A stretch of 64,000 nt of DNA, taken from NCBI GenBank assembly GCA_043228905.1, contig JBHGNT010000020.1, positions 9,548,001 through 9,612,000 on the forward strand, written 5' to 3'. The notes under the pieces were generated by a model. That model was given only the letters and a program-made list of their open reading frames with translations. It was not told where the DNA came from and searched no databases. Origin of the DNA: Azolla caroliniana (Eukaryota > Plantae > Polypodiophyta). Positions within the stretch are counted from its first letter, which is position 1, and every line of letters starts with the position of its first letter. Both the position numbers and the translations under genes were made by a program. Positions 9,086 to 58,229 of this stretch are shown piece by piece.

Positions 9086-9908
9086 ATTTTTCCATTCTGT
9101 TCTTCATCGAGATTAGGTTTTTTTTGTTTTGTGTGTGTTTCGAGCTGAAGTTAGTTGCAGAGGTTCTCAACCCTCTCGCTCTGATACCATGTAAAACGTT
9201 GTCGTAGTGTATTCCACACACTACGTGAAAACCATAAAATAATATATCCGATTTTAGATACATATAAATAAATAAATAATATATCAAAAGAATTTATCAC
9301 GTGCATAGGGCAGGATTTGAACCATGCACCTCCACGTAGATAAACCCCAACTTTACCATTGTAATAATTTATCTTTAGTGTTATAAATATAGATTTAATA
9401 CGTATAAGATCTTTATTTACACATACCTTTATTAAAAGGTAAAAATCATGTATTCTTTAGAGTGTGAATATTTTATTTACACGTGACATTAAAAGTGACT
9501 CATGCACATCTAGCGTGCATGAGCCCTATATTTAGGAAATGACAAAGCATCACATGCACATTTAGTGTGCATGGGCACTTTAGGTGAAAAAGCATGAAGC
9601 CATGCTTAGCCTCTTCCATCTTTATATAAGGAGGAGAAAAATATGTATATGGTTGTTGATTAATATACAAGTTTTTGATCAATCTAATATATTCGTGGGA
9701 TTCACGAATTTTGCCATCTAATTGCTCTTATAATCTAAATATTGTTTTAATTACACTAAACTCGTGAGATTCACGAGATTGCTATCTTACTTCTCTTTCC
9801 ACTATTCATAGCTAGCCTTAAGTTGTATTCCTCTTCCTCCTAGTCAAAAACCTCGGCGGTTCCCACCCGACTCACGCAACGATCCGGAGCCGAAGGGCAC
9901 GACACAGT

Positions 9909-15618: not shown

Positions 15619-16005
15619 TATATCCGATTTTAGATACATATAAATAAATAAATAATATATCAAAAGAATTTATCACGTGCATAGGGCAGGATTTGAACCA
15701 TGCACCTCCACATAGATAAACCCCAACTTTACCATTGTAATAATTTATCCTTAGTATTATAAATATAGAGTTAATACGTATAAGACCTTTATTTACACAT
15801 ACCTTTATTAAAAGGTAAAAATCATGTATTCTTTAGAGTGTGAATATTTTATTTACACGTGCCATTAAAAGTGACTCATGCACGTCTAGCGTGCATGAGC
15901 CCTATATTTAGGAAATGACAAAGCATCACATGCACATTTAGTGTGCATGGACACTTTAGGTGAAAAAGCATCACATGCACATTTAGTGTGCATGGACACT
16001 TTAGG

Positions 16006-33499: not shown

Positions 33500-33856
33500 C
33501 CTGGATTTGTCTGTGTGTGTGGGTGGAGGGAATGTGTTTTTCGTAGAGCGTACGACTCTACTACCGGCTAAGCCCAGTTGTATTCTACTTACCTTAATCT
33601 ATTCATTTGATTTTTTGGGTCAATCTCTTCTCATTTTGGGTTTCATCTCTATTTCTGTTCCTTCATATCTGTTTCCTCACTCTACCTGAGAAATGTGTGA
33701 CGCAGTTTCTTCTACAAACCTATATGTACGTTGTCTGGGTTCTAGTGACCGACCAGGCACTCTGTCACGGTATCTTGTCCTACTCCCCCTGACTCCTTGG
33801 TCTAAGACCCCCGTGGTCCTGCCCATCTCAATACATACTCGGGTAAACCCGCAACA
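33500..33856 (+). mobile_element. Partial LTR related to the solo LTR at 61458-62182
   Basis: Shared 3' end GACCCCCGTGGTCCYGCCC...CGCAACA; left boundary unclear. Confidence 0.6.
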
Positions 33857-34850
33857 ACATGATGGTCGACACGAGTCTGACCGGAATCGGTTGGTGTCAT
33901 GAGATGGCAAGACTCGAACCCATGACCTTATGGTATATGGGTCGAGCTCTTAACCATCACACCATCTATTGTAATTCATAGGATATTATTTTCATTTATG
34001 TTTTATTATAAGAAAGTAATGTATATTTCAGATTTCTCTGGAACATTCTAGAAGTTTCAGGATTACTCTTGACAACACTATAAAAGAAGGCACTAGGCAT
34101 TATGTCGAACCAAATTGGTTCAACGTCAGTCTTAAGCCTCTCAGTCGCTTTGTACTTATCTTTTCACATAATATATTAGTTGTTGTCATCATCTTTCTCT
34201 CTCTCATCCTCGCTATATCTCTCTCTCTCTCCTCTTCTCACTTCCTCTCTCGGGAATATTACGCAGTCTCGTCCTCTTAGTACTAATAGTACTGCTCTTC
34301 TTAGTACTAATTCCATCTCTGCTTTAGTACTATTCCTGACAGTTTGAACCAATTTGGTTCGACATAATGCCTAGTGCCTTCTTTTATAGTGTTGTCAGGA
34401 GTAATCCTGAAACTTCTAGAATGTTCCAGAGAAATCTGGAATATACATCACTTTCTTATAATAAAACATAAATGAAATTAATATTCTATGAATTACAATA
34501 GATGGTGTGATGGTTAAGAGCTCGACCCATATACCATAAGGTCATGGGTTCGAGTCTTGCCATCTCATGACACTCAAGTAGGCTGGAGGAAAGGAAGAAG
34601 AAAAGCAACGACGACGTGTCAATCGATTATGCCTTTATTGTGGTGGATCAGGGCATATCGCCATCAATTGTCCCCGTAGGTCAAGAAGACAGGTAAATCA
34701 AATCGTCGCCTGTACTAAACCCAAGTCAATTCTTCCCTTCGGAGTGTCTGATAGTATTAATAGTACTAATAGAGTGTCAAATAGTATTCATAGTACTAAT
34801 AGTCCAAGTATCTCAAACAAATTTGAAATCCTTAGTCAATTAGATGAAGA

Positions 34851-34910
34851 GTTAAACGATTGAGTCCAGCCAAAATAGGAGTCGTTTGGTTGGACAGCAG
34901 CCCTAGATCT
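34851..34910 (+). promoter_or_regulatory. -1 frameshift signal (G_UUA_AAC plus 11-bp stem)
   Basis: Heptamer 34851-34857; gag TGA at 34861-34863; stem GTCCAGCCAAA/TTTGGTTGGAC 6 nt downstream; protease ORF in the -1 frame. Confidence 0.7.
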
Positions 34911-37900
34911 GTACAGCCCATTAGTGGTTCCATTCCTTCCAAGCAAGTTAGCAATGTGTTCCTAGCCCAAGTCATTGTTAGTATTAAAAGTACTCCCCCA
35001 GTACCCGTCCTAGCACTCTTAGATTCCGGAGCTAATTCCTGTTTCATGGATCGAAATTTTGCCCAAGCTTCTCAGATAGCCCTAAGAAAACTTCCTTGTC
35101 CCGCATTTGTAGTAGTCATTGATGGTCGTCCCATTGCTTCCGGGAATATTGTAGAAGAATCAGAACCCATTCAAGTTGTCCTAGGTAGTTTTGTGTGTGT
35201 AATATCATTTAATATAATTAGTAGTCCAGAGCATCCCATTGTCCTAGGATTACCTTGGTTTGAATTACATAATCTAGCCATAGATTGGAGAACAAGAGAA
35301 GTCTGATATCGACCACCCCAAGAATCTACTCACCGAGTTTCGACCATTTCACTCCATCAATTACGCGAAGAAGGACACAAGGAGGCAATGTTCCTATTTG
35401 CAATATCAGTACATCCTTCCAGCACTATTCAGAAGGACTCCTCAGTACAGCTTCCGGCAAAATATCATCCTTATGCCGATGTATTTGACAAGGTAAAAGC
35501 CGGTACCCTTCCTCATCACCGTCCCTATGACTGTCCCATCGATTTACAACCAGGAATAGAGCCACCATGGGGACCAATTTACAACTTGTCACCCACCGAG
35601 TTAGAAGTTCTTCGAGCCTACATGGAGGAGAACTTGGCAAGCGGGTTCATCCGTCATTCGAAATCTCCGGCCGGTGCACCCATCTTCTTTGTCAAGAAGA
35701 AAGATGGCTCATTTCGTCTCGGCGTTGATTACCGCGGATTGAATAAGGTCACCATCCGGAATAGGTATGCACTTCCTCTTATATCAAGTCTTTTAGAGCG
35801 AGTTAATGGTGCCAAGTTTTTTACCAAAATCGATCTACGAGGAGCGTATAACCTCGTGCAAATCCGACCGGGAGATGAATGGAAGACCGCCTTTCGCACA
35901 CGGTATGGGCATTTCGAGTATATTGTTATGCCGTTCGGCCTAACCAATGCACCCGCAGTCTTCCAACACATGGCAAATGATATATTCAGAGACCTCTTGG
36001 ATATCTGTTTGATCATCTATCTTGATGATCTATTGATTTATTCGAAGACCCAGCAAGAGCACGATTCTCATGTACTATTAGTACTAAAGCGACTCCGCGA
36101 GAATGGTCTTTATGCCAAGCTAGAAAAATGTAGCTTTGACTGCAAGCAAGTGGAATTTCTAGGCTATGTCATCTCCTCAAAGGGCATCGCCATGGATCCA
36201 GCTAAAGTCCAAACTGTACTAGAGTGGCAAATTGCACGGTCGGTACGAGATGTACAATGTTTTCTAGGTTTTGCTAACTTCTACCGTAAGTTTATACACG
36301 ATTACTCGAAGATTATCTTACCCCTCACACAACTTACGAAGAAGGGCCAAGCATTTCTTTGGTCCATTGAAGCAGATATGACTTTTCGGCATCTTAAGAA
36401 AGCCTTTACATCAGCACCGATTCTAGCTCATGTGGATACTAGCAAACCATTCATCATGGAGGCCGATGCTTCAGATTTCGCCCTCGGTAGCATCCTTTCT
36501 CAACAAGGAGATAAAGAAGAGTTGCATCCGGTGGCTTTCCATTCGCGCAAATTCGATGTTGCGGAAATCAACTACGAAATACATGACAATGAGTTATTAG
36601 CCATCGTGGATTCATTTGTGCAATGGCGGCATTTCTTAGAGGGCTCTCCACATCAGGTCGTTGTCTTTAGTGATCATAAAAATCTTGCTTATTTCCAGAA
36701 CGCTCGCGTACTAAATCGACGGCAAGCTTGGTGGGCGCAATTCCTCATGCGTTTCGACTTCAAAATCACATATCAACCAGGGAAGCAGCAAGGAAAAGCA
36801 GATGCACTATCACGGCGTTCATATCTTGCACCTCGTCCTGGTGATCCAACATTTGATAATCAAAAGCAAGTAATCTTGGGACCAACACGATTGCACACGA
36901 CGCAGATTTTTCACACCCCGATGGATTCACAGATTACCGATGACATCCGTGCAAACTTGAAGATGGATAGTTTTGCTCAAAACAGTTTGGCGCACATTGA
37001 TACTTCTCGGGCATCCTGTACTCAGTCTCAACAACCAGGTATTGACTACTGACAATTCGAATATCATGATGGTTTGTTATTCTTTAAAAAGCGCGTATAT
37101 GTCCCCGATTGCTCCTGTCGCCTTCAAATCGTCCAGCATTGCCACGACATTTCGGTAGTACTAAGACGTTGGAGCTAGTGCAACGATCTTTTTGGTGGCC
37201 CCACATGCGCCGTTTTGTCGACGACTACGTTCGGACCTGTGATGCTTGCTGCCGAGCAAAGATGCCACGACACCATCCATATGGCTTGTTGGAACCCTTA
37301 CCGATTCCAAGTAAGCCGTGGTAATCTATTTGTCTTGATTTTATCATAGATCTTCCGGTCTCGTAGGGGTTCGATGCTATCTTAACTGTCATTGATCGAT
37401 ATACGAAGATGGCACATTTTGTTCCATGTACTAAGGTCATCACTAGCGAGGAAACCGCCGCCCTAGTCATGCGTGAGGTATTTCGGCATCATGGCCTCCT
37501 AGACAGTATCATCAGTGACCGAGGACTGCAATTTGTCTCCAAATTTTGGCAACATCTCTTCAACATGCTAAAGGTCTCTTGCAATCTCTCCTCCGGCTAC
37601 CTGTTATGTACACATAACGTTGGTGAGGGTAGGTCACTAATATTTACATTAGTGAAGGGTATGTTCACTATTATTAAAAAGGGGACTAATGATTGGATAG
37701 AATGAATGATATGTGCATGCACTATCATGATTTAGACAACCAATGAATAGAGAGCCTTTTAGAAAGGCACATCTATTCAAGGGGCCTAGGAAAAGGTATA
37801 AATATGAGGCTTAGCTACCCTCATAAGATCATCACATCGGAAGGCTGCTGTCGTAGACACCGGTGGTGCGGGCTAGGCTTTCGTCTCGACGATCGTGTTT

Positions 37901-38319
37901 ATCTCTTCCAAGGTATTAGTCATCCTAATATCCGGCGGTATGGGACGTCGGTGGTAGGTTGGCTATGTCTAGATCATAGCTCGGGGGTGGTCGGGTGGAA
38001 CGGGTTCTTCTATCCAATCTATTTTCTTCCTTTTTACTTGATTTGGTCTATTGATTAGTAATAGACTCTTAACAATGGTATCAGAGCTTTTACTAACAAT
38101 TTTTTTGTTGTTTTGATGTTTTTTGCGTGTGAGCGAGGGGGATCTAACAAGGCTCGTCATGCTCTTCTCAGGATCAAAACAACACTCTAAACCCGGTATT
38201 CTTCTTTTTTGATCTCTTCTCTTTTTCTATTATGCGTTCTTTATGGTCGAATCAAATTGGTATTACGTTTTATTCTCTTTCTTTCTACCTCCTACTACGC
38301 TACGATTTTACTTATTATT

Positions 38320-38835
38320 ATGCATCGGGCCGAGCGTGTTTGCACTAATCGCACACGCTCAACTCATGGCCTTTTGCATATTGCGATATATATCCCACTC
38401 TCTCCTCTCTTGAACTCTTACGATAATAATTATTCTTGTGCATTGGGTCGAGCGTGTTTGCTCTAATCGCACACGCTTATCTCATGGCCGTTTTGCATAT
38501 GATGTTGAGTATACCACTCTTCCCCTCTATTGAGCCATCACTTGGCCGATTCTAAGGGATGATGTGGCCTTGACGAGGTGTATGTTGCCTACCTATGCCA
38601 CTCTACTCTCTATTAAGCCATCAATTGGCCGATTCTATGGGATGTTGTGGCCTTGACAAGGTATATGTAGCTTACATATGTCACTTTCCTTTTTAATTAG
38701 CCATCAATTGGCCGATTCTAAGGGATGATGTGGCCTTGACGAGGTATATGTCACTTACCTATGCCACTTTCCTCTTTAATTAGCCATTACTTGGCCGATT
38801 CTAGGGATATGTGGTGGTCTTGAGGAGGTGCATGT
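38320..38835. repeat. Leader repeats: 118-bp unit x2 and 83-bp unit x4
   Basis: TTGGCCGATTCTA at 38542, 38625, 38708, 38791; GAGCGTGTTTGC blocks 118 bp apart. Confidence 0.9.
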
Positions 38836-39806
38836 CAACTACCCTAGGGTTTCGTATCTTAGGGCATGTTTGATTCCATACACCTAATTGTTGATTATTC
38901 TAATTAAATTTTAATTTCATAAGTAGTGTTTCACTTATATGATTTTCTAGTAATTATTATTTACCCGCCCACAATTAACTCTCCTTTTTCCACTTCCTTT
39001 TCATGTATAAAGTATTTACATCGTTTATTTTTAATGTAACCTTTACGTGTAGACTATTTTTTCGTATGGAGTGGCTTGTTGAACGATTTTTTTTCAACGG
39101 GTCATCTAGGTTTAACTCTTATCATCAAGCCTTAGAAAACGAGTAAAACCATATGAGTTCCCTTATTGATGTTTTACTCATGGATTTGAGTATTACATCT
39201 TTGCGCACAACACCGTCATCACTTGTATCAATTTGTGGCTTATGTCACAATTGTGCAAGTTATAACAATCATATTGGGATGTATATGTGCATACCTTGCA
39301 CTTCCCATTTATTTGTGACATTGTTTTTTTCGTAGGTAACACATGGGTTCGTCACTACTTAACTCTTATGAGTAGTGCCTTATTTTATCATTTTATCATC
39401 ACGTTTGCTTATTGCTCGCAAGACTAGAATATTACTTGTGAGTGCACTTGTTTTTTCACGTAATACACTTTCTCGACCATATAATACATGATGGGTTGGC
39501 ATTAATATAAGGCTATCTACGAAATTTCATTGATGTAAGAACCATGGTTGAGCCTCGGGGAGCCGCCATGATTACTCAAGATAGAGATCCGAGAAATACA
39601 TCTTAGCTATGTTTTCCCCCATGGTTTTTAAAACACCATAGTGTTACCATAGTTATCGGATCTCGAATCACATCTCATATGTCTAGAGGGGTAAAGACAT
39701 GAGATACTTTCTTGGATAAAGTTCTTTCAATCAAAATTTCAAGCATTCATTTTGCTTGTGTATTTTCTGAACCTCCTTATTTTATTGCATACCCACAGCG
39801 TGCATC

Positions 39807-42800
39807 ATGGAACAAGTTTTGAACGCAGTTGGAACGATCTCTCCAAATGAGACCTCTCAACCCCAATCCGCATCTCGCACACAAGCTGAGATCACTATTG
39901 AGCAATTGCTCACTACTACCTTGAATCAATTGGCCGAAATGAGACAGGCCAATATGGCATTGGAAAAGAAATTCCAAGAATTAACTATTGAGTCCAAGAA
40001 AGAAGGTGAACCTTCCTTCGTAGTCACGCCTTTCAAGGGAGATAAGAAAGAAAGAACCGAGGAGGCCATTAGCACTTGGCTTGGTCGTTGGGAGTCTCAC
40101 TTTGAGCTTCATCCCAAGCCCGATGCAGTAAAAATTGGTTATGTCGGTCGTGAGTTAGGTGGCCGAGCTGCTGCTTGGTGGCGTGGCCTAAGGACCGCAA
40201 AAAACTTACCCGGAAGGTTTCGTTGATGTTTTTAAGAAACAATTCTTGCAGCCACCTTCTCAAACCGAACAAGCGCAACACTTGCTCACATTGTCTAGTA
40301 AGCCATTTACCTCTCTCGAGGATTATGTGCATCACGCTCGGACCCAGATCCAAAAATCGGGACTTACGGGTGAGAAATGGTTTGTCGCTTGTTTTTTGAA
40401 TGGTATTCCCAATGGGGATTATCATTGGATTGTCCATGACAAGGACCCCACAACTTTCGAGGAAGCCGTCAACATTGTGCTGAGATACCATAGGACTTAC
40501 AAGAAAGACCACAATAAACCTGAGTTCGCCAAAACTCCGAATGTCAAGTTCATTGGGAAACGTAAGCAATCCAGTGACACTCTTGACCGCGACTCAAAGA
40601 AACCGAACCTCTTCTGTGCATATTGCAAGAAGCGGGGCCACACAAAGGATACTTGTCGTCGTCTTGAGAGGAAGTCAATGAACACCCCTCCTCAAGACAA
40701 ATCTACGAGTCACACAGGTAAGTCTTTTGATATTGTTGAAGTTCATACCAATCACTTAAGTTTATGTGAATGCACTTTTCCTTCACATTTACTTGGACCT
40801 AATGATTTACTCCGAGCAGTCGGATATATCAATGGAACACAAGCACATTTCTTGTTTGATTCCGGTAGTTCTCACAATTTTCTTAATGATCACTTTGTGC
40901 AGCAAATGGAGCTCCACATAAACGCAAGTGATCATATCTATCAAGTTCACATGGCAAATGGAAACGTTCAATACATCAGTGGCATTGTTTGTCAACTGCC
41001 AATTCAAATAGATACTTATTTGGAGAAGCTTGACTTTCATGTTATGAAATTACAATCCGCAGATGTCATTTTAGGATATCCTTGGTTTTTTAATAAAAAC
41101 CCTTCTTTGTCCATTGATTGGGTTAATCACTCAATCACATTTGAACTTAATAATTGTAAACATTTTATTCAATGTTCCAAACTTCCTTCTCATTCACTTG
41201 TGTCTTCTAAATCTTTAAGTGAGTATTCTAGTTCATTAATTTATTCGTGTGTAATTGATCCTGCGGTTCAATTTTATTATTTTAATATTGACACCACACA
41301 ATTACCACATTTTGAGCAACGATTACTCGACTCTATTTTAGAGGATTTTCAAGATGTGTTTCCTACTGAATTACCGCTTACTTTACCACCTAAACGTAAT
41401 GTGGACCATCAAATTGAACTCATCCCTGGGGCTGCTCCTGTGAGCATTCCACCTTACCGACTTAGTCGATTAGAAGAGGATGAGATCGCTAAACAACTTA
41501 AGGAATACTTGAGTATGGGCCACATTAGGTATAGTAAATCACCTTGGGGTGCGCCAGTTCTATTAGTCAAGAAGAAGGAAGGTTCGTGGCGAATGTGTAT
41601 CAATTATCGCCGTTTGAATAAAATGACAATTAAGAATGCATATCCATTACCTCGTGCCGATGATTTGATTGATCGTTTGCACGGGGCTCGATATTTTACG
41701 AAAATTGACTTACGAACTGGTTATCATCAGATTCGCATCGCCGAGGATGATATTCCTAAAGCCGCTTTTCGTACGCGCTATGGCCATTATGAGTTTTTAG
41801 TCATGCCGTTTGGGTTGACTAATGCTCCAGCCACATTCCAACAAGCGATGAATGATGTTTTCCGAGATCAACTCGGTGATTTTGTTGTCGTCTTCTTGGA
41901 TGATATTTTGATATATAGCCGTACCTTGCAAGATCATGTTCAACATGTTTGATTTGTTTTGCGAAAGTTGCGTGACAACTCTTTCTATGCAAAACATTCA
42001 AAATGTGACTTCTTCCAAAAATCTATTGTGTACCTAGGTCATTTAATTACAGAAAATGGCGTTGAAATTGAACCTTCTCGTATTGAAAAGGTTAAACTTT
42101 GGCCCATTCCTCGTAATATTCGTGAACTTAGATCATTCTTAGGGTTTGTTGGATTTTTACGAAAATCAATTCGTAACTATTCCAAATTGACTACGCCATT
42201 AACTGACCTTTTAAAAGGTCATCCACGTAAGTCTGTCAAACCAATTTCATGGAATGAACAACTTGACAAATCATTTGAGACACTTAAGGAGCATGTGTGT
42301 CAGGCTCCCAATCTTCTATTACCAGACCCTTCTAAGCCTTTCTCAATTGAAACCGATGCTAGTGATTATGCTATTGGTGCCGTTCTTTATCAAGGTGGTC
42401 ACCCTATTGCTTTTGAAAGTAAGAAGCTTGATGCTGCTCAATCTCGGTATTCGGTTCAAGAGAAAGAGTTGTTTGCGGTGATACACGCACTTAAAACATG
42501 GAGGCACTATCTCTATGGAAATAAATTTGTGGTTACAACAGACCATCAATCATTAAAGTATTTTTGTGACCAGCCCGATCTTGTTGGTCGTAAATGCCGT
42601 TGGGCTGACCTTATGCAAGATTTTGATTTTTCCATACGATATCGCAAGGGTTCTATGAACACCGTTGCTGATGCTCTTAGTCGCATTAAAGAAGTTAACA
42701 TGCTTAGCTTCACGGAAATAAAATCTGATCTTTTAGATCACCTTCGAGGGAAATACCTTGATGACAGTTATTTCTCAAAATACTGGACGAAAGCCGAATC

Positions 42801-44203
42801 TGGTTTAGATGCCGATACTAGCACCCTAACCTCGAAGGCGACCTTTCACATTACAAACGGTTTGCTCTACTGTAGTGGAAAGGTCTATGTTCCAGATTTA
42901 CCAAATGTTAAACAGAAATTTTTTCATGAATGTCATGATGCACCATCTGCTGGTCATCCTGGAATACAACGCACACTCGTTCTCATCTCGTGTACTTTTT
43001 TTTGACCTAAGATGCGCTCTGACGTGCATAAATACGTAACTCAATGCTTACAATGTCAGATTAATAAGTCGGAGCAACTTAAAGCTGCTGGTCTTTTACA
43101 TCCCTTAGATATTCCCAACAATAAATGGGAAAGTATCTCGATGGATTTTATTGTTAGTTTACCTCGTACACAGAGGGGTCATGATGCCATATGGGTTGTC
43201 GTTGACAGGCTAACAAAATTAGCTAGATTTATTCCTACAAAAACCACGGTAACCGCTCAACAGTTGGCTTATCAATTTGTTGATGAGTTATTTCGTTTTT
43301 ATGGATTACCGATGGATATTGTTAGTGATCGAGATTCCAAGTTTACTAGTGACTTTTGGACTCAGGTCTTTAAGAAACTAGAAACTACGTTGAGCATGAG
43401 TTCCGCAGATCATCCTCAGTCTGATGGACAAACTGAACGAGTTAATCAAATTATTGAGGACATGCTTCGAGCTTATGTAGCAAAAACCCCTTCTAAGTGG
43501 GAGCAATACCTTCCTATCTTAGAATTTGCCTATAATAGCTCTAAACATACATCCACTGGATATAGTCCTTTTATGTTGATGTATCGTTTTCAGCCACGTG
43601 CCCCAGTTGATGTCACGATTCATCATGATACATTAGACAGTACACGCAATTTTTTGCAAGACATGAACCAAATGTTGCATATTGCCAAAGAAAATGTCAA
43701 GACAGCTCAAGATCGTGCTCGATTTTATGCTGATCAGGATAGACGTCCTCGTGCATTTACTATTGGTCAAAAAGTTTTTTTGCGTGTCCCGACTGATTCT
43801 ACGTCATTATCTACGGGCAAGTGCGCTAAGTTAGCCCCACGATATTGTGGCCCATTTGAAATCCTTAAGCGAGTTGGGTCATCTGCTTATCACCTTGCCT
43901 TACCTCGTAACGTTGGTATTCATCCTGTTTTTCACGTCAATCGTCTAAAACCATTTTTAGGCTCTGGTGATAACACCATCACAATCCAAGATCTTGTAAC
44001 ATTAGAGGATTTTTTCTTACAAACCTCATGTTCCTGAACGAATTCTTGATTCTCGTACTAAACGTTTACGTTCTAAAGAGATTCGGCTATTCAAGATCAA
44101 ATGGATGGATAAACCTATTGATGATGCCACATGGGAACGCGAGCATTCGCTTAAGGCACAATTTCCTCACTTTATATTGCAAGAGTGCAATCTTTTGAAG
44201 TAG
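39807..44203 (+). pseudogene. pol: Gag-pol with group-II chromodomain; two stops and two frameshifts
   Basis: [54 protein letters not shown]; stops at 41950-41952 and 43003-43005. Confidence 0.93.
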
Positions 44204-47200
44204 GGGAGTATGTTATGTACACATAACGTTGGTGAGGGTAGGTCACTAATATTTACATTAGTGAAGGGTATGTTCACTATTATTGAAAAGGGGACTAATG
44301 ATTGGATAGAATGAATGATATGTGCATGCACTATCATGATTTAGACAACCAATGAATAGAGAGCCTTTTAGAAAGGCACATCTATTCAAGGGGCCTAGGA
44401 AAAGGTATAAATATGAGGCTTAGCTACCCTCATAAGATCATCACATCGGAAGGCTGCTGTCGTAGACACCGGTGGTGCGGGCTAGGCTTTCGTCTCGACG
44501 ATCGTGTTTATCTCTTCCAAGGTATTAGTCATCCTAATATCCGGCGGTATGGGACGTCGGTGGTAGGTTGGCTATGTCTAGATCATAGCTCGGGGGTGGT
44601 CGGGTGGAACGGGTTCTTCTATCCAATCTATTTTCTTCCTTTTTACTTGATTTGGTCTATTGATTAGTAATAGACTCTTAACACTACCATCCTCAAACCG
44701 ATGGGCAGGCAGAACGAACAAACCAAACGCTAGAGCAATATCTCCGGTGTTTCCTGAGTTATCAACAGGACGATTGGGCCGAGGTTCTCCACTTTGCGGA
44801 GTTTGCATATAATAATGTTGTTCACTCCTCGACTCGAGTCTCCCCATTCTACGCTTATACCGGTTCTCATCCTCGTTGGTCGGTGATCGACACCCCGGAG
44901 CTACCTACCAATCCTCGTGCCGAGGATCATTTGGAGAGACTACGCAAGATCCAAACAGATCTCTCGACTCATCTTCGTCATGCTCAACAGACACAGAAGA
45001 CTTACGCAGATCGTCATCAGCTTCCCTCCTCTTTTGCCATCGGAGATCGAGTATGGCTCTTACGTCGTCACATCAAGACTACTCGACCGTGCGACAAGTT
45101 GGATTATCGACGACTCGGTCCTTTCCTTATTACGGGTAAAGTTAATGATGTCACATTCCGCCTTGATCTCCCTTCGCAGCTTCAGATACATCCGGTTTTC
45201 CATTGTTCTCTTCTTGAACCTTATAAAGCAAACACCATTCCCGATCGTGTTACACCACCGCCGCACCCGCTGGAGTTGGACGCCAGCCCGGAGTATGAAG
45301 TTGCTGCCATCCTCGATTCCAAACTTATTCGCAACAAACTTTATTATTTGGTCGATTGGGTTGGTTATAGTCCGAGCGAACGCACTTGGGAACCTGTCGA
45401 GCATGTTGCCAATGCTCAGGATCTGCTTGCTGATTTCCACCGAAAGTATCCGGACAAACCCGGTCCGCAATCAGCGCCGACTCGTTCCACTCGTCGTCTT
45501 TAAGGGGAGATAGTGTCATGAGATGGCAAGACTCGAACCCATGACCTTATGGTATATGGGTCGAGCTCTTAACCATCACACCATCTATTGTAATTCATAG
45601 GATATTATTTTCATTTATGTTTTATTATAAGAAAGTAATGTATATTTCAGATTTCTCTGGAACATTCTAGAAGTTTCAGGATTACTCTTGACAACACTAT
45701 AAAAGAAGGCACTAGGCATTATGTCGAACCAAATTGGTTCAACGTCAGTCTTAAGCCTCTCAGTCGCTTTGTACTTATCTTTTCACATAATATATTAGTT
45801 GTTGTCATCATCTTTCTCTCTCTCATCCTCGCTATATCTCTCTCTCTCTCCTCTTCTCACTTCCTCTCTCGGGAATATTACGCAGTCTCGTCCTCTTAGT
45901 ACTAATAGTACTGCTCTTCTTAGTACTAATTCCATCTCTGCTTTAGTACTATTCCTGCTTTAGTACTATTCCCGCAACAACATGATGGTCGACACGAGTC
46001 TGACCGGAATCGGTTGGTGTCATGAGATGGCAAGACTCGAACCCATGACCTTATGGTATATGGGTCGAGCTCTTAACCATCACACCATCTATTGTAATTC
46101 ATAAGATATTATTTTCATTTATATTTTATTATAAGAAAGTAATGTATATTCCAGATTTCTCTAGAACATTCTAGAAGTTTCAGGATTACTCCTGACAACA
46201 CTATAAAAGAAGGCACTAGGCATTATGTCGAACCAAATTGGTTCAACGCTAGTCTTAAGCCTCTCAGTCGCTTTGTACTTATCTTTTCACATAATATATT
46301 AGTTGTTGTCATCATCTTTCTCTCTCTCTCATCCTCGCTATCTCTCTCTCTCTCTCCCCTTCTCACTTCCTCTCTCGGGAATCTTACGCAGTCCCGTCCT
46401 CTTAGTAATAATAGTACTACTCTTCTTAGTACTAATTCCATCTCTGCTTTAATACTATTCCTGACAGTTGGGTGATCAATCAGGAGGATGAAGCTGGAAT
46501 ATGGTTCCCCATCCGGTTCAGTGTGAAGGTGCTGAGAGAGTGGCAATGATGATATGCCCAAGTTAAACGCGAACTGTGGGGTGTCGTTTCGGCAGTCAAG
46601 GCCGACAAAAACTATCCGATCGGGATAGAAGTGATCATCGAGATGGATTGCTTACTATGAAAGGGTTTTTAGAATCTAAGCCATTGAACATTAGAAGAAT
46701 ATAAAGTATGGATAATTCACATTTGGAGGCTAAGAACACGAACCAAGACCTTAGGAAGAAGTCAAAAGTAAAAGTAAGAGACCAAGAGAAAAGTAAAAAG
46801 AGAAAATGTAGACCATAAAAAATAGTAAAAAAGGAATGGTCATAACTCCTTCGTTTTTCACCCAAATTTTATGTTTAAATATGGGTTAGAAATATTGTAA
46901 AGAGAGATATCTATAACTTTTTAAATCACTAAATTTGGAGCTCGGATGAGGGAGATATGACGAGGTAGCTAAAAATAGGAGATAAAAAGCTTCTAAAAAT
47001 AGCGTGAACGAGGAAGAAGAAGAAAATTATAAAAGAAGAAGTAGGGGTTCTAATAGAAAAGGGGTACTAATAGAGAAAGGATCCTAATAGAGGGGGAGGA
47101 GTCTTAGGAAGAGGTATCTTAGTGGAAGAAGATGGTTCTTAGTAGTGGGTTTGAGTGATGGGTAGTAAGAAGGTCTTTGATTTTTGTAGAAAGTAACGTG

Positions 47201-50319: not shown

Positions 50320-50981
50320 TGTCATGCCCTTCGGCTCCGGATCGTTGCGTGAGTCGGGTGGGAACCGCCGAGGTTTTTGACTAGGAGGAAGAGGAATACA
50401 ACTTAAGGCTAGCTATGAATAGTGGAAAGAGAAGTAAGATAGCAATCTCGTGAATCTCACGAGTTTAGTGTAATTAAAACAATATTTAGATTATAAGAGC
50501 AATTAGATGGCAAAATTCGTGAATCCCACGAATATATTAGATTGATCAAAAACTTGTATATTAATCAACAACCATATACATATTTTTCTCCTCCTTATAT
50601 AAAGATGGAAGAGGCTAAGCATGGCTTCATGCTTTTTCACCTAAAGTGCCCATGCACACTAAATGTGCATGTGATGCTTTGTCATTTCCTAAATATAGGG
50701 CTCATGCACGCTAGATGTGCATGAGTCACTTTTAATGTCACGTGTAAATAAAATATTCACACTCTAAAGAATACATGATTTTTACCTTTTAATAAAGGTA
50801 TGTGTAAATAAAGGTCTTATACGTATTAAATCTATATTTATAACACTAAAGATAAATTATTACAATGGTAAAGTTGGGGTTTATCTACGTGGAGGTGCAT
50901 GGTTCAAATCTTGCCCTATGCACGTGATAAATTCTTTTGATATATTATTTATTTATTTATATGTATCTAAAATCGGATATA

Positions 50982-57993: not shown

Positions 57994-58229
57994 TAAAGGT
58001 ATGTGTAAATAAAGGTCTTATACGTATTAAATCTATATTTGTAACACTAAAGATAAATTATTACAATGGTAAAGTTGGGGTTTATCTACGTGGAGGTGCA
58101 TGGTTCAAATCCTGCCCTATGCACGCGATAAATTCTTTTGATATATTATTTATTTATTTATATGTATCTAAAATCGGATATATTATTTTATGGTTTTCAC
58201 GTAGTGTGTGGAATACACTACGACAACGC

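Follow-up and report, generated by a model that had tools for sequence, protein, structure and literature searches.

The window analysed here (64,000 nucleotides of contig JBHGNT010000020.1, positions 9,548,001 to 9,612,000 of the forward strand) contains a Tcn1-like Gypsy retrotransposon whose long terminal repeats (LTRs) carry, antisense and at the tip of their U3 region, a tRNA-like cassette with the A and B boxes of an RNA polymerase III (Pol III) promoter. In the 5' LTR, LTR A (33895..34341, plus strand, 447 bp, with TG..CA ends), the cassette block occupies 33899-33966 on the minus strand and begins 4 nt inside the LTR. Re-reading of the sequence gave the boxes exactly where the sequence-only reading had placed them, TGGTGTGATGG at 33964-33954 and GGTTCGAGTC at 33920-33911 of the minus strand, with 33 nt between them. 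The A box (33954..33964) corresponds to tRNA positions T8 to G19, with a G replacing the A at position 14 in this subfamily, and the B box (33911..33920) to tRNA positions 52-61, its end lying 16 nt from the LTR tip. Immediately 5' of the B box stands a conserved AGGT (33925..33928, minus strand), equivalent to variable-loop positions 44-47, and an AT-rich flank upstream of the A box (33965..34010, minus strand) would be the place for TFIIIB; the AT content at -40..-21 is 85% in 28 cassette representatives versus 83% in three tRNA genes. The anatomy of a type-2 Pol III promoter, consisting of A and B boxes at tRNA spacing and an AT-rich upstream flank, is present, and the antisense cassette is separated by about 113 nt from the TATA box of the RNA polymerase II (Pol II) promoter of the LTR (34079..34086, plus strand, a motif match).

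The tRNA likeness of the cassette is evident from a local alignment score of 37 against the 39 distinct tRNA genes of the genome, compared to a maximum of 31 in 300 shuffles, and no other of the 3118 windows of the 64 kb ranks higher. On a covariance model built from 14 tRNA genes of the genome, the four window copies rank first with 13.8 bits (rough E value 0.006), and the best cassette family reaches 20.3 bits on the same model, the Rfam cut-off being 29 bits. The scan with tRNA models supports tRNA-derived boxes and speaks against a tRNA gene, a candidate which was rejected after ARAGORN gave 0 calls, Rfam yielded no tRNA match at E values up to 10 and cloverleaf stems proved to be absent.

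The host element and its LTR copies

The sequence-only reading had described the host as a Tcn1-like, protein-coding element, which is borne out by the Gypsy order of protease, reverse transcriptase (RT), RNase H (RH) and integrase together with a chromodomain, a self-priming primer binding site (PBS) and a 5-bp target site duplication (TSD). The 5-bp target sequence GTTGG is found just before LTR A (33890-33894), and the self-priming-type PBS follows directly behind it (34342..34355, plus strand). Its 12-nt complement lies within the LTR at 34112..34123 (plus strand, LTR positions 218-229), the predicted start of R for self-priming, and the same PBS stands behind other genomic 5' LTRs; no tRNA-type PBS was found after the 5' LTR, where the LTR-complementary sequence stands instead. 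A broken pol with protease, RT and RNase H (34848..37052, plus strand, from open reading frames and Pfam) is separated by a nested Gypsy element (37602-44683) from the integrase C-terminus with its Tf2-1-like SH3 domain and chromodomain (44682..45503, plus strand; Pfam SH3_Tf2-1, E 2e-17, and Chromo, E 1e-12). The polypurine tract (PPT, 45502-45513) precedes LTR B, the 3' LTR (45514..45957, plus strand), which is 100% identical to LTR A and has its cassette at 45530-45583. LTR C (46018..46466, plus strand, cassette at 46034-46087) is 96.8% identical to LTR A and bears GTTGG on either side, while copy D (34344..34572, minus strand) is an inverted, U3-only fragment derived from a different copy, with 97.8% identity to LTR A and its own cassette at 34503-34556.

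Searched at the DNA level, the genome (523 Mb) returned 3017 candidates, with paired LTRs about 5.7 kb apart and 5-bp target duplications in seven LTR pairs (three exact, four with one mismatch). Open frames of 1215-1230 amino acids are present in sister families, and the host is to be regarded as a 5.7-kb gag-pol Gypsy element. Its RT is very like that of SM-Tcn1 from Selaginella, as judged by eye, the RT tree containing no named reference elements. The Tcn1 chromoviruses of mosses and lycophytes share the chromodomain, self-priming PBS, 5-bp TSD and a length of 5.5-6 kb (PMC2864245, PMC6317226; here and below, the literature is cited for the consulted parts of each text), and self-priming is found in 83% of Tcn1 elements (Neumann et al., PMC6317226). 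For SM-Tcn1, no self-priming signal was found by the authors of PMC2864245; on inspection by eye, the sequence following its 5' LTR complements an LTR-internal stretch in the same relative place as here.

Some details of the locus concern its later history. Copy D meets the element exactly at the PBS (34342-34572), and the self-priming PBS is the reverse complement of the start of R; the junction may stem from a nested copy in antisense and a subsequent deletion via these 12-13 nt of microhomology, which would leave an inverted U3 that runs into gag. LTR A and copy D together form a 680-bp near-palindrome. LTR B lacks its last 3 nt, and the stretch between it and LTR C (45958-46017) holds first a 14-nt local repeat, then 46 nt copied from the left flank of LTR A; GTTGG occurs to the left of LTR A and on the left and right of LTR C. 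This arrangement looks like a repair-mediated duplication, with one LTR replaced later. The insertion site stretch (33848-33894, minus strand) resembles a tRNA 3' end and stands directly before another LTR starting at 33856.

Conservation within and between families

The first argument for selection, drawn by the sequence-only reading from the invariance of the block in the four LTR copies, does not hold. The block is indeed identical in all four, but A and B are 100% identical to each other, and the probability that all eight variable sites miss 68 of 229 nt by chance is 0.057. Among 29 close genomic copies, departures from the majority amount to 1.67% of cells in the block versus 1.63% in the remaining U3, and only two of them have a block identical to that of the window. 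A profile over 11 subfamilies (B box 2.7%, other U3 8.7%) was set aside as partly circular, since the box pattern had determined the choice of seven of the 11 rows; in addition, the AGGT window of the profile was misplaced by one base. A conservation profile thus shows the block no better kept than other U3 sequence within the close family, and selective retention, which fails in the four-copy and within-family comparisons, becomes visible only between families.

This second level was approached through 80 loci chosen by their chromodomain (60 returned by a genome search for which two diverged relatives supplied the chromodomain tails, and 20 picked from an earlier list), in each of which the sequence after the PPT was read; the box pattern was not used for the choice, and the chromodomain tails are 51-66% identical. 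Grouped by eye, these loci represent nine sister families with different LTR starts. At least 12 of the 13 textbook box positions were found in antisense orientation within 260 nt of the chromodomain in 75 of the 80 loci, compared to 0 of 80 in the integrase control. One of the remaining five scored best in sense via a palindromic B box, with antisense boxes also present, and four scored lower. Over ten protein-chosen families, T8, T16, G18, G19, A44, T47, G53, T55, C56 and A58 are found in all ten, the fixed or nearly fixed positions comprise T8, R9, A14, R15, T16, G18, G19, A44, T47 and 52-61, and the spacer positions are variable. Families whose surrounding LTR sequence differs likewise agree in the spacing of 43-44 nt and in the AGGT preceding the B box. 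In contigs at least 80% alike, taken from four organisms, variants above 8% are confined to 33931-33936, 33947, 33952, 33958 and 33960, i.e. the spacer and A-box positions 12 and 14, with none above this level in the B box, T8, G18 or G19. The variant at position 14 changes G to the consensus A, which is also present in close metagenome relatives and most related contigs, so that the G14 of the window represents a subfamily deviation. A CpG asymmetry in the B box, with G57A tolerated between families and C56 fixed, is suggestive only (3 versus 2 among 30 copies).

The tRNA fold has not been kept along with the boxes. Watson-Crick pairing of the T-stem and anticodon-stem positions amounts to 33% and 23% in the 28 representatives, to 28% and 28% in a swapped-family control, and to 86% and 80% in 29 tRNA genes; only these two stems were used, as the registers of the acceptor and D stems are unreliable even in real tRNAs (41% and 31%). 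Because the stems are lost while the boxes stay, the feature retained is a DNA promoter, not an RNA. As judged from these alignments, the cassette is under selection throughout the lineage. That the cassette is a neutral relic, left from a captured tRNA or the head of a short interspersed element (SINE) and simply carried along in U3, is therefore quite improbable. Such a relic would agree with the decay of the block at the pace of other U3 sequence within the young family and with the lack of the cassette in some families of the second lineage treated below, but decay after insertion is expected under any function, and the persistence of boxes and spacing between families while stems, spacer and flanks turn over largely refutes it.

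In the window, the cassette region (33895-33972) forms a single long hairpin on both strands (z scores -4.5 and -4.3), since its spacer contains an inverted near-copy of the B box, and this hairpin comes immediately after the PPT. It might accordingly serve replication instead of binding Pol III factors, be it as an RNA or cDNA hairpin beside the PPT or as a protein site close to the integrase attachment end. We consider this unlikely, because the long hairpin is limited to the closest subfamilies (z below -3.5 in only six of the 28 representatives), the cassette stands anywhere between 16 and about 200 nt from the LTR tip, and the conserved positions coincide exactly with those of the tRNA A and B boxes.

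Spread through the genome and a second Gypsy lineage

The exact pattern of A and B boxes with a spacer of 31-33 nt has 10,699 matches in the genome, the G14 variant of the window not being among them, compared to two in the control, 164 with a shorter and 298 with a longer spacer. The first 30 matched places comprise 14 Tcn1-type LTR tips, ten antisense and one sense cassette in Phygy-like LTRs, two tRNA genes and three places without assignment, some of the Phygy-like assignments being made by likeness and not from an adjacent open reading frame. The Phygy-like elements form a separate lineage with a DUF4100 gag and 25% RT-RH identity to the Tcn1 type. Elements of the Phygy group have a PBS assigned to tRNA-Trp. 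In the window, their cassettes lie antisense to the respective elements at 9302..9373 (minus strand), 15678-15749 (minus), 50851-50922 (plus) and 58052-58123 (plus). The Phygy-like element of the window gives no chromodomain match in Pfam and its ends are flanked by ACGT and GCGT, its assignment to Phygy being tentative. In the survey of Neumann et al. (PMC6317226), Phygy is a non-chromovirus Gypsy group with a 4-bp NCGN target, and Tcn1-type and Phygy-like elements found together are tied to mosses and club-mosses. A moss is therefore the likely source of the genome.

The second lineage carries the cassette less regularly. Of 20 Phygy-like loci, taken by rank from a DUF4100 search and scored with a matrix built from Tcn1 families only, five score above the null maximum and about four more have a weaker or degenerate cassette, whereas it is absent from at least three complete LTRs (L259, L270 and L271). 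One Phygy-like family (four loci) carries the cassette in sense, at a distance of about 250 nt to the tip and 83 nt before the TATA box, with T runs downstream, one of them 30 nt after the B box. Outside these lineages, no cassette was found in the four other LTR families of the window, in 12 distant chromoviruses or, by eye, in the LTR of SM-Tcn1 from Selaginella (PMC2864245, supplement S3), which differs in this respect from the elements studied here, and only one of 76 distant Gypsy contigs contained it. In this contig, L295 from a viral collection, the A/B cassette is strong, in sense orientation, and located about 505 nt downstream of the integrase match. Because other LTR families of the window, the distant Gypsy relatives and SM-Tcn1 lack it, the cassette was apparently gained in this plant lineage and became common to two Gypsy groups via U3 exchange or repeated capture.

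Several observations touch on this origin. Tcn1-type and Phygy-like U3 regions both hold repeated GCCAA(A/G)TGGCATGC-like motifs downstream of the cassette, as judged by eye (L099, L119, L126, L262), which hints at an exchange of U3 modules between the lineages. Two Phygy-like loci (L217, L218) show an apparent second, more worn cassette in the same LTR, about 165 nt upstream on the element strand. Finally, L223 and L228 (1500-1850) contain a repeat with an intact A/B head and a common body of about 320 nt (80% identity), for which there is no LTR evidence; this repeat is a candidate tRNA-SINE and a possible source of the cassette.

For elements which, like yeast Ty3, seek out Pol III start sites, the cassette might also be a landing pad or decoy. 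This is highly improbable, since only nine genome-wide matches of a Tcn1- or Phygy-type LTR end were found within about 30-90 nt after an intact B box of family F0, in a test that detects only inserts beginning with that LTR-end motif, and six of these nine belong to three paired-LTR couples and were apparently inherited, not inserted. LTR tips beside tRNA loci were not seen at any of the 30 loci examined.

Boundary module or transcribed promoter: two possible readings

In every assigned case, the cassette is found on the stretch from the LTR tip to the TATA box, at 16 to about 200 nt from the tip and, in most families, at 113-256 nt from the TATA box. Constant placement, reversible orientation and loose distances to tip and TATA box fit a boundary module. 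The reading which we favour, and to which we give about even credence, is that a tRNA-derived module of A and B boxes in the U3 of many protein-coding Gypsy families would be bound as DNA by TFIIIC and serve as a boundary or chromatin opener for the Pol II promoter. An ancestral tRNA or tRNA-SINE head would have been captured into U3, where TFIIIC would occupy the boxes, probably loading TFIIIB onto the AT-rich flank and creating a nucleosome-poor patch. This patch would sit between the insertion flank and the Pol II promoter of the LTR and shield the latter from silent chromatin. Elements inserting into silent, transposon-rich regions would gain from this, because their TATA-driven promoter, 113-256 nt further in, would stay usable; Pol III transcripts, short or read-through, may be made as by-products. 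That TFIIIC binds A and B boxes and sets TFIIIB on an AT-rich flank is known (PMC13578239), and moss RLG1, cited as a comparison only, is located in heterochromatic islands and still transcribed (PMC7466625).

The closest analogy to such a function is provided by the tRNA genes and TFIIIC-bound barriers of yeast and its ETC sites, which are A/B-box DNA with roles beyond tRNA synthesis, nucleosome-poor, and able to halt the spread of silencing as Pol III complexes (PMC13578239, PMC11346459). These are host loci with a role proven by experiment in yeast; for plants, a Pol III-type barrier is stated to be undescribed (PMC13578239), and the consulted text does not mention one as cargo of autonomous retrotransposons.

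A number of points weigh against a boundary role. Some complete Phygy-like LTRs, four other LTR families of the window and SM-Tcn1 lack the cassette, so that elements of this kind do not require it. The box pattern had served to choose sixteen of the 28 representatives, which inflates the conservation seen there, the 80-locus count and the ten-family comparison being free of such selection. The conserved A box, strict spacing and AT-rich flank are equally consistent with a working transcription promoter, and in yeast a site with nothing but a B box is enough for TFIIIC to bind. Most cassette copies may be inert, as methylation of DNA impairs the binding of TFIIIC (PMC11346459).

A working Pol III promoter with a meaningful transcript is possible but doubtful; it would yield an RNA that either runs antisense out of the 3' LTR through the PPT towards integrase or leaves the 5' LTR outward, tuning element expression or small-RNA silencing. 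The complete type-2 anatomy including the AT-rich flank, the antisense orientation in all Tcn1-type and most Phygy-like families, and an antisense strand that in the window family often extends beyond 700 nt into pol without a run of four T (T4) all agree with such a transcript. Its ends, however, are not conserved: in families F1, F3 and F4, T4 comes 12-19 nt after the B box and inside the LTR, F2, F5 and F7 have it in the PPT, and for F0 and F6 it is hundreds of nt distant; one family is in sense orientation with an immediate T run, and neither a fold nor the spacer sequence is conserved. A conserved long antisense transcript, as indicated by T4 avoidance, was rejected as applying to F0 and F6 only. 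Two contig sets presumed to be RNA, an origin that is guessed, contained 12 and 0 weak matching pieces. The sequence-only reading had proposed an outward-facing Pol III promoter or insulator; its type-2, tRNA-derived boxes stand, but outward orientation is not general, and the insulator half fits better because one family is in sense orientation and terminators are unconserved. We therefore rank the boundary module above a Pol III transcript, and regard the replication hairpin, neutral relic and landing pad as less likely.

Among known retroelements, the Helenus group of TRIMs (miniature retrotransposons with terminal repeats), represented by TRIMp3, resembles the present case in its tRNA-derived LTR sequence with boxes A and B (Kojima 2024, PMC10886601). 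The Helenus elements are non-coding and 311-1263 bp long, and their promoter is thought to make the element RNA, whereas the cassette described here stands mostly antisense at the U3 tip of a 5.7-kb coding gag-pol Gypsy element with its own TATA box; conserved A and B boxes are common to both, while non-autonomy and a promoter position for transcribing the element are not found here. The same source holds that the autonomous partners of Helenus have to rely on Pol II, notes only that part of a tRNA occurs in "not a few" LTRs of Repbase, and contains in its consulted text neither "moss" nor "Physcomit". The Cassandra TRIMs likewise have a Pol III promoter in both LTRs of a plant retroelement, but this is of 5S-derived type 1 in a non-autonomous element transcribed from the 5' LTR to the 3' LTR (PMC10886601). 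The term "polymerase III" is absent from the consulted text of PMC2864245 and PMC6317226. In the literature covered, no account of such a cassette in autonomous moss LTRs was found, and subscription papers on moss chromoviruses and genomes, Repbase and the REXdb supplements may mention it.

Pol III boxes have been known from TRIMs, which are short and non-coding and whose RNA they are presumed to produce, and occur here in full-length coding elements. Since these elements keep the boxes despite having their own Pol II promoter, and mostly carry them backwards, the role must differ from making element RNA. As the most abundant repeats of the genome bear the boxes, effects of these on chromatin, on the titration of TFIIIC or on transcription of the flanks, if any, would be multiplied about ten-thousandfold. 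Precise gene targeting is possible in the leading moss model. As a tentative proposal from these comparisons, which we hold to be rather less than probable, the U3 regions of two distant lineages of autonomous moss Gypsy elements would carry a portable, orientation-independent TFIIIC insulator, providing more than 10,000 sites for Pol III factors, beyond the likely supply by tRNA genes; this would be the first Pol III-type barrier in plants and may be a cause of the interleaving of silent and active chromatin in mosses.
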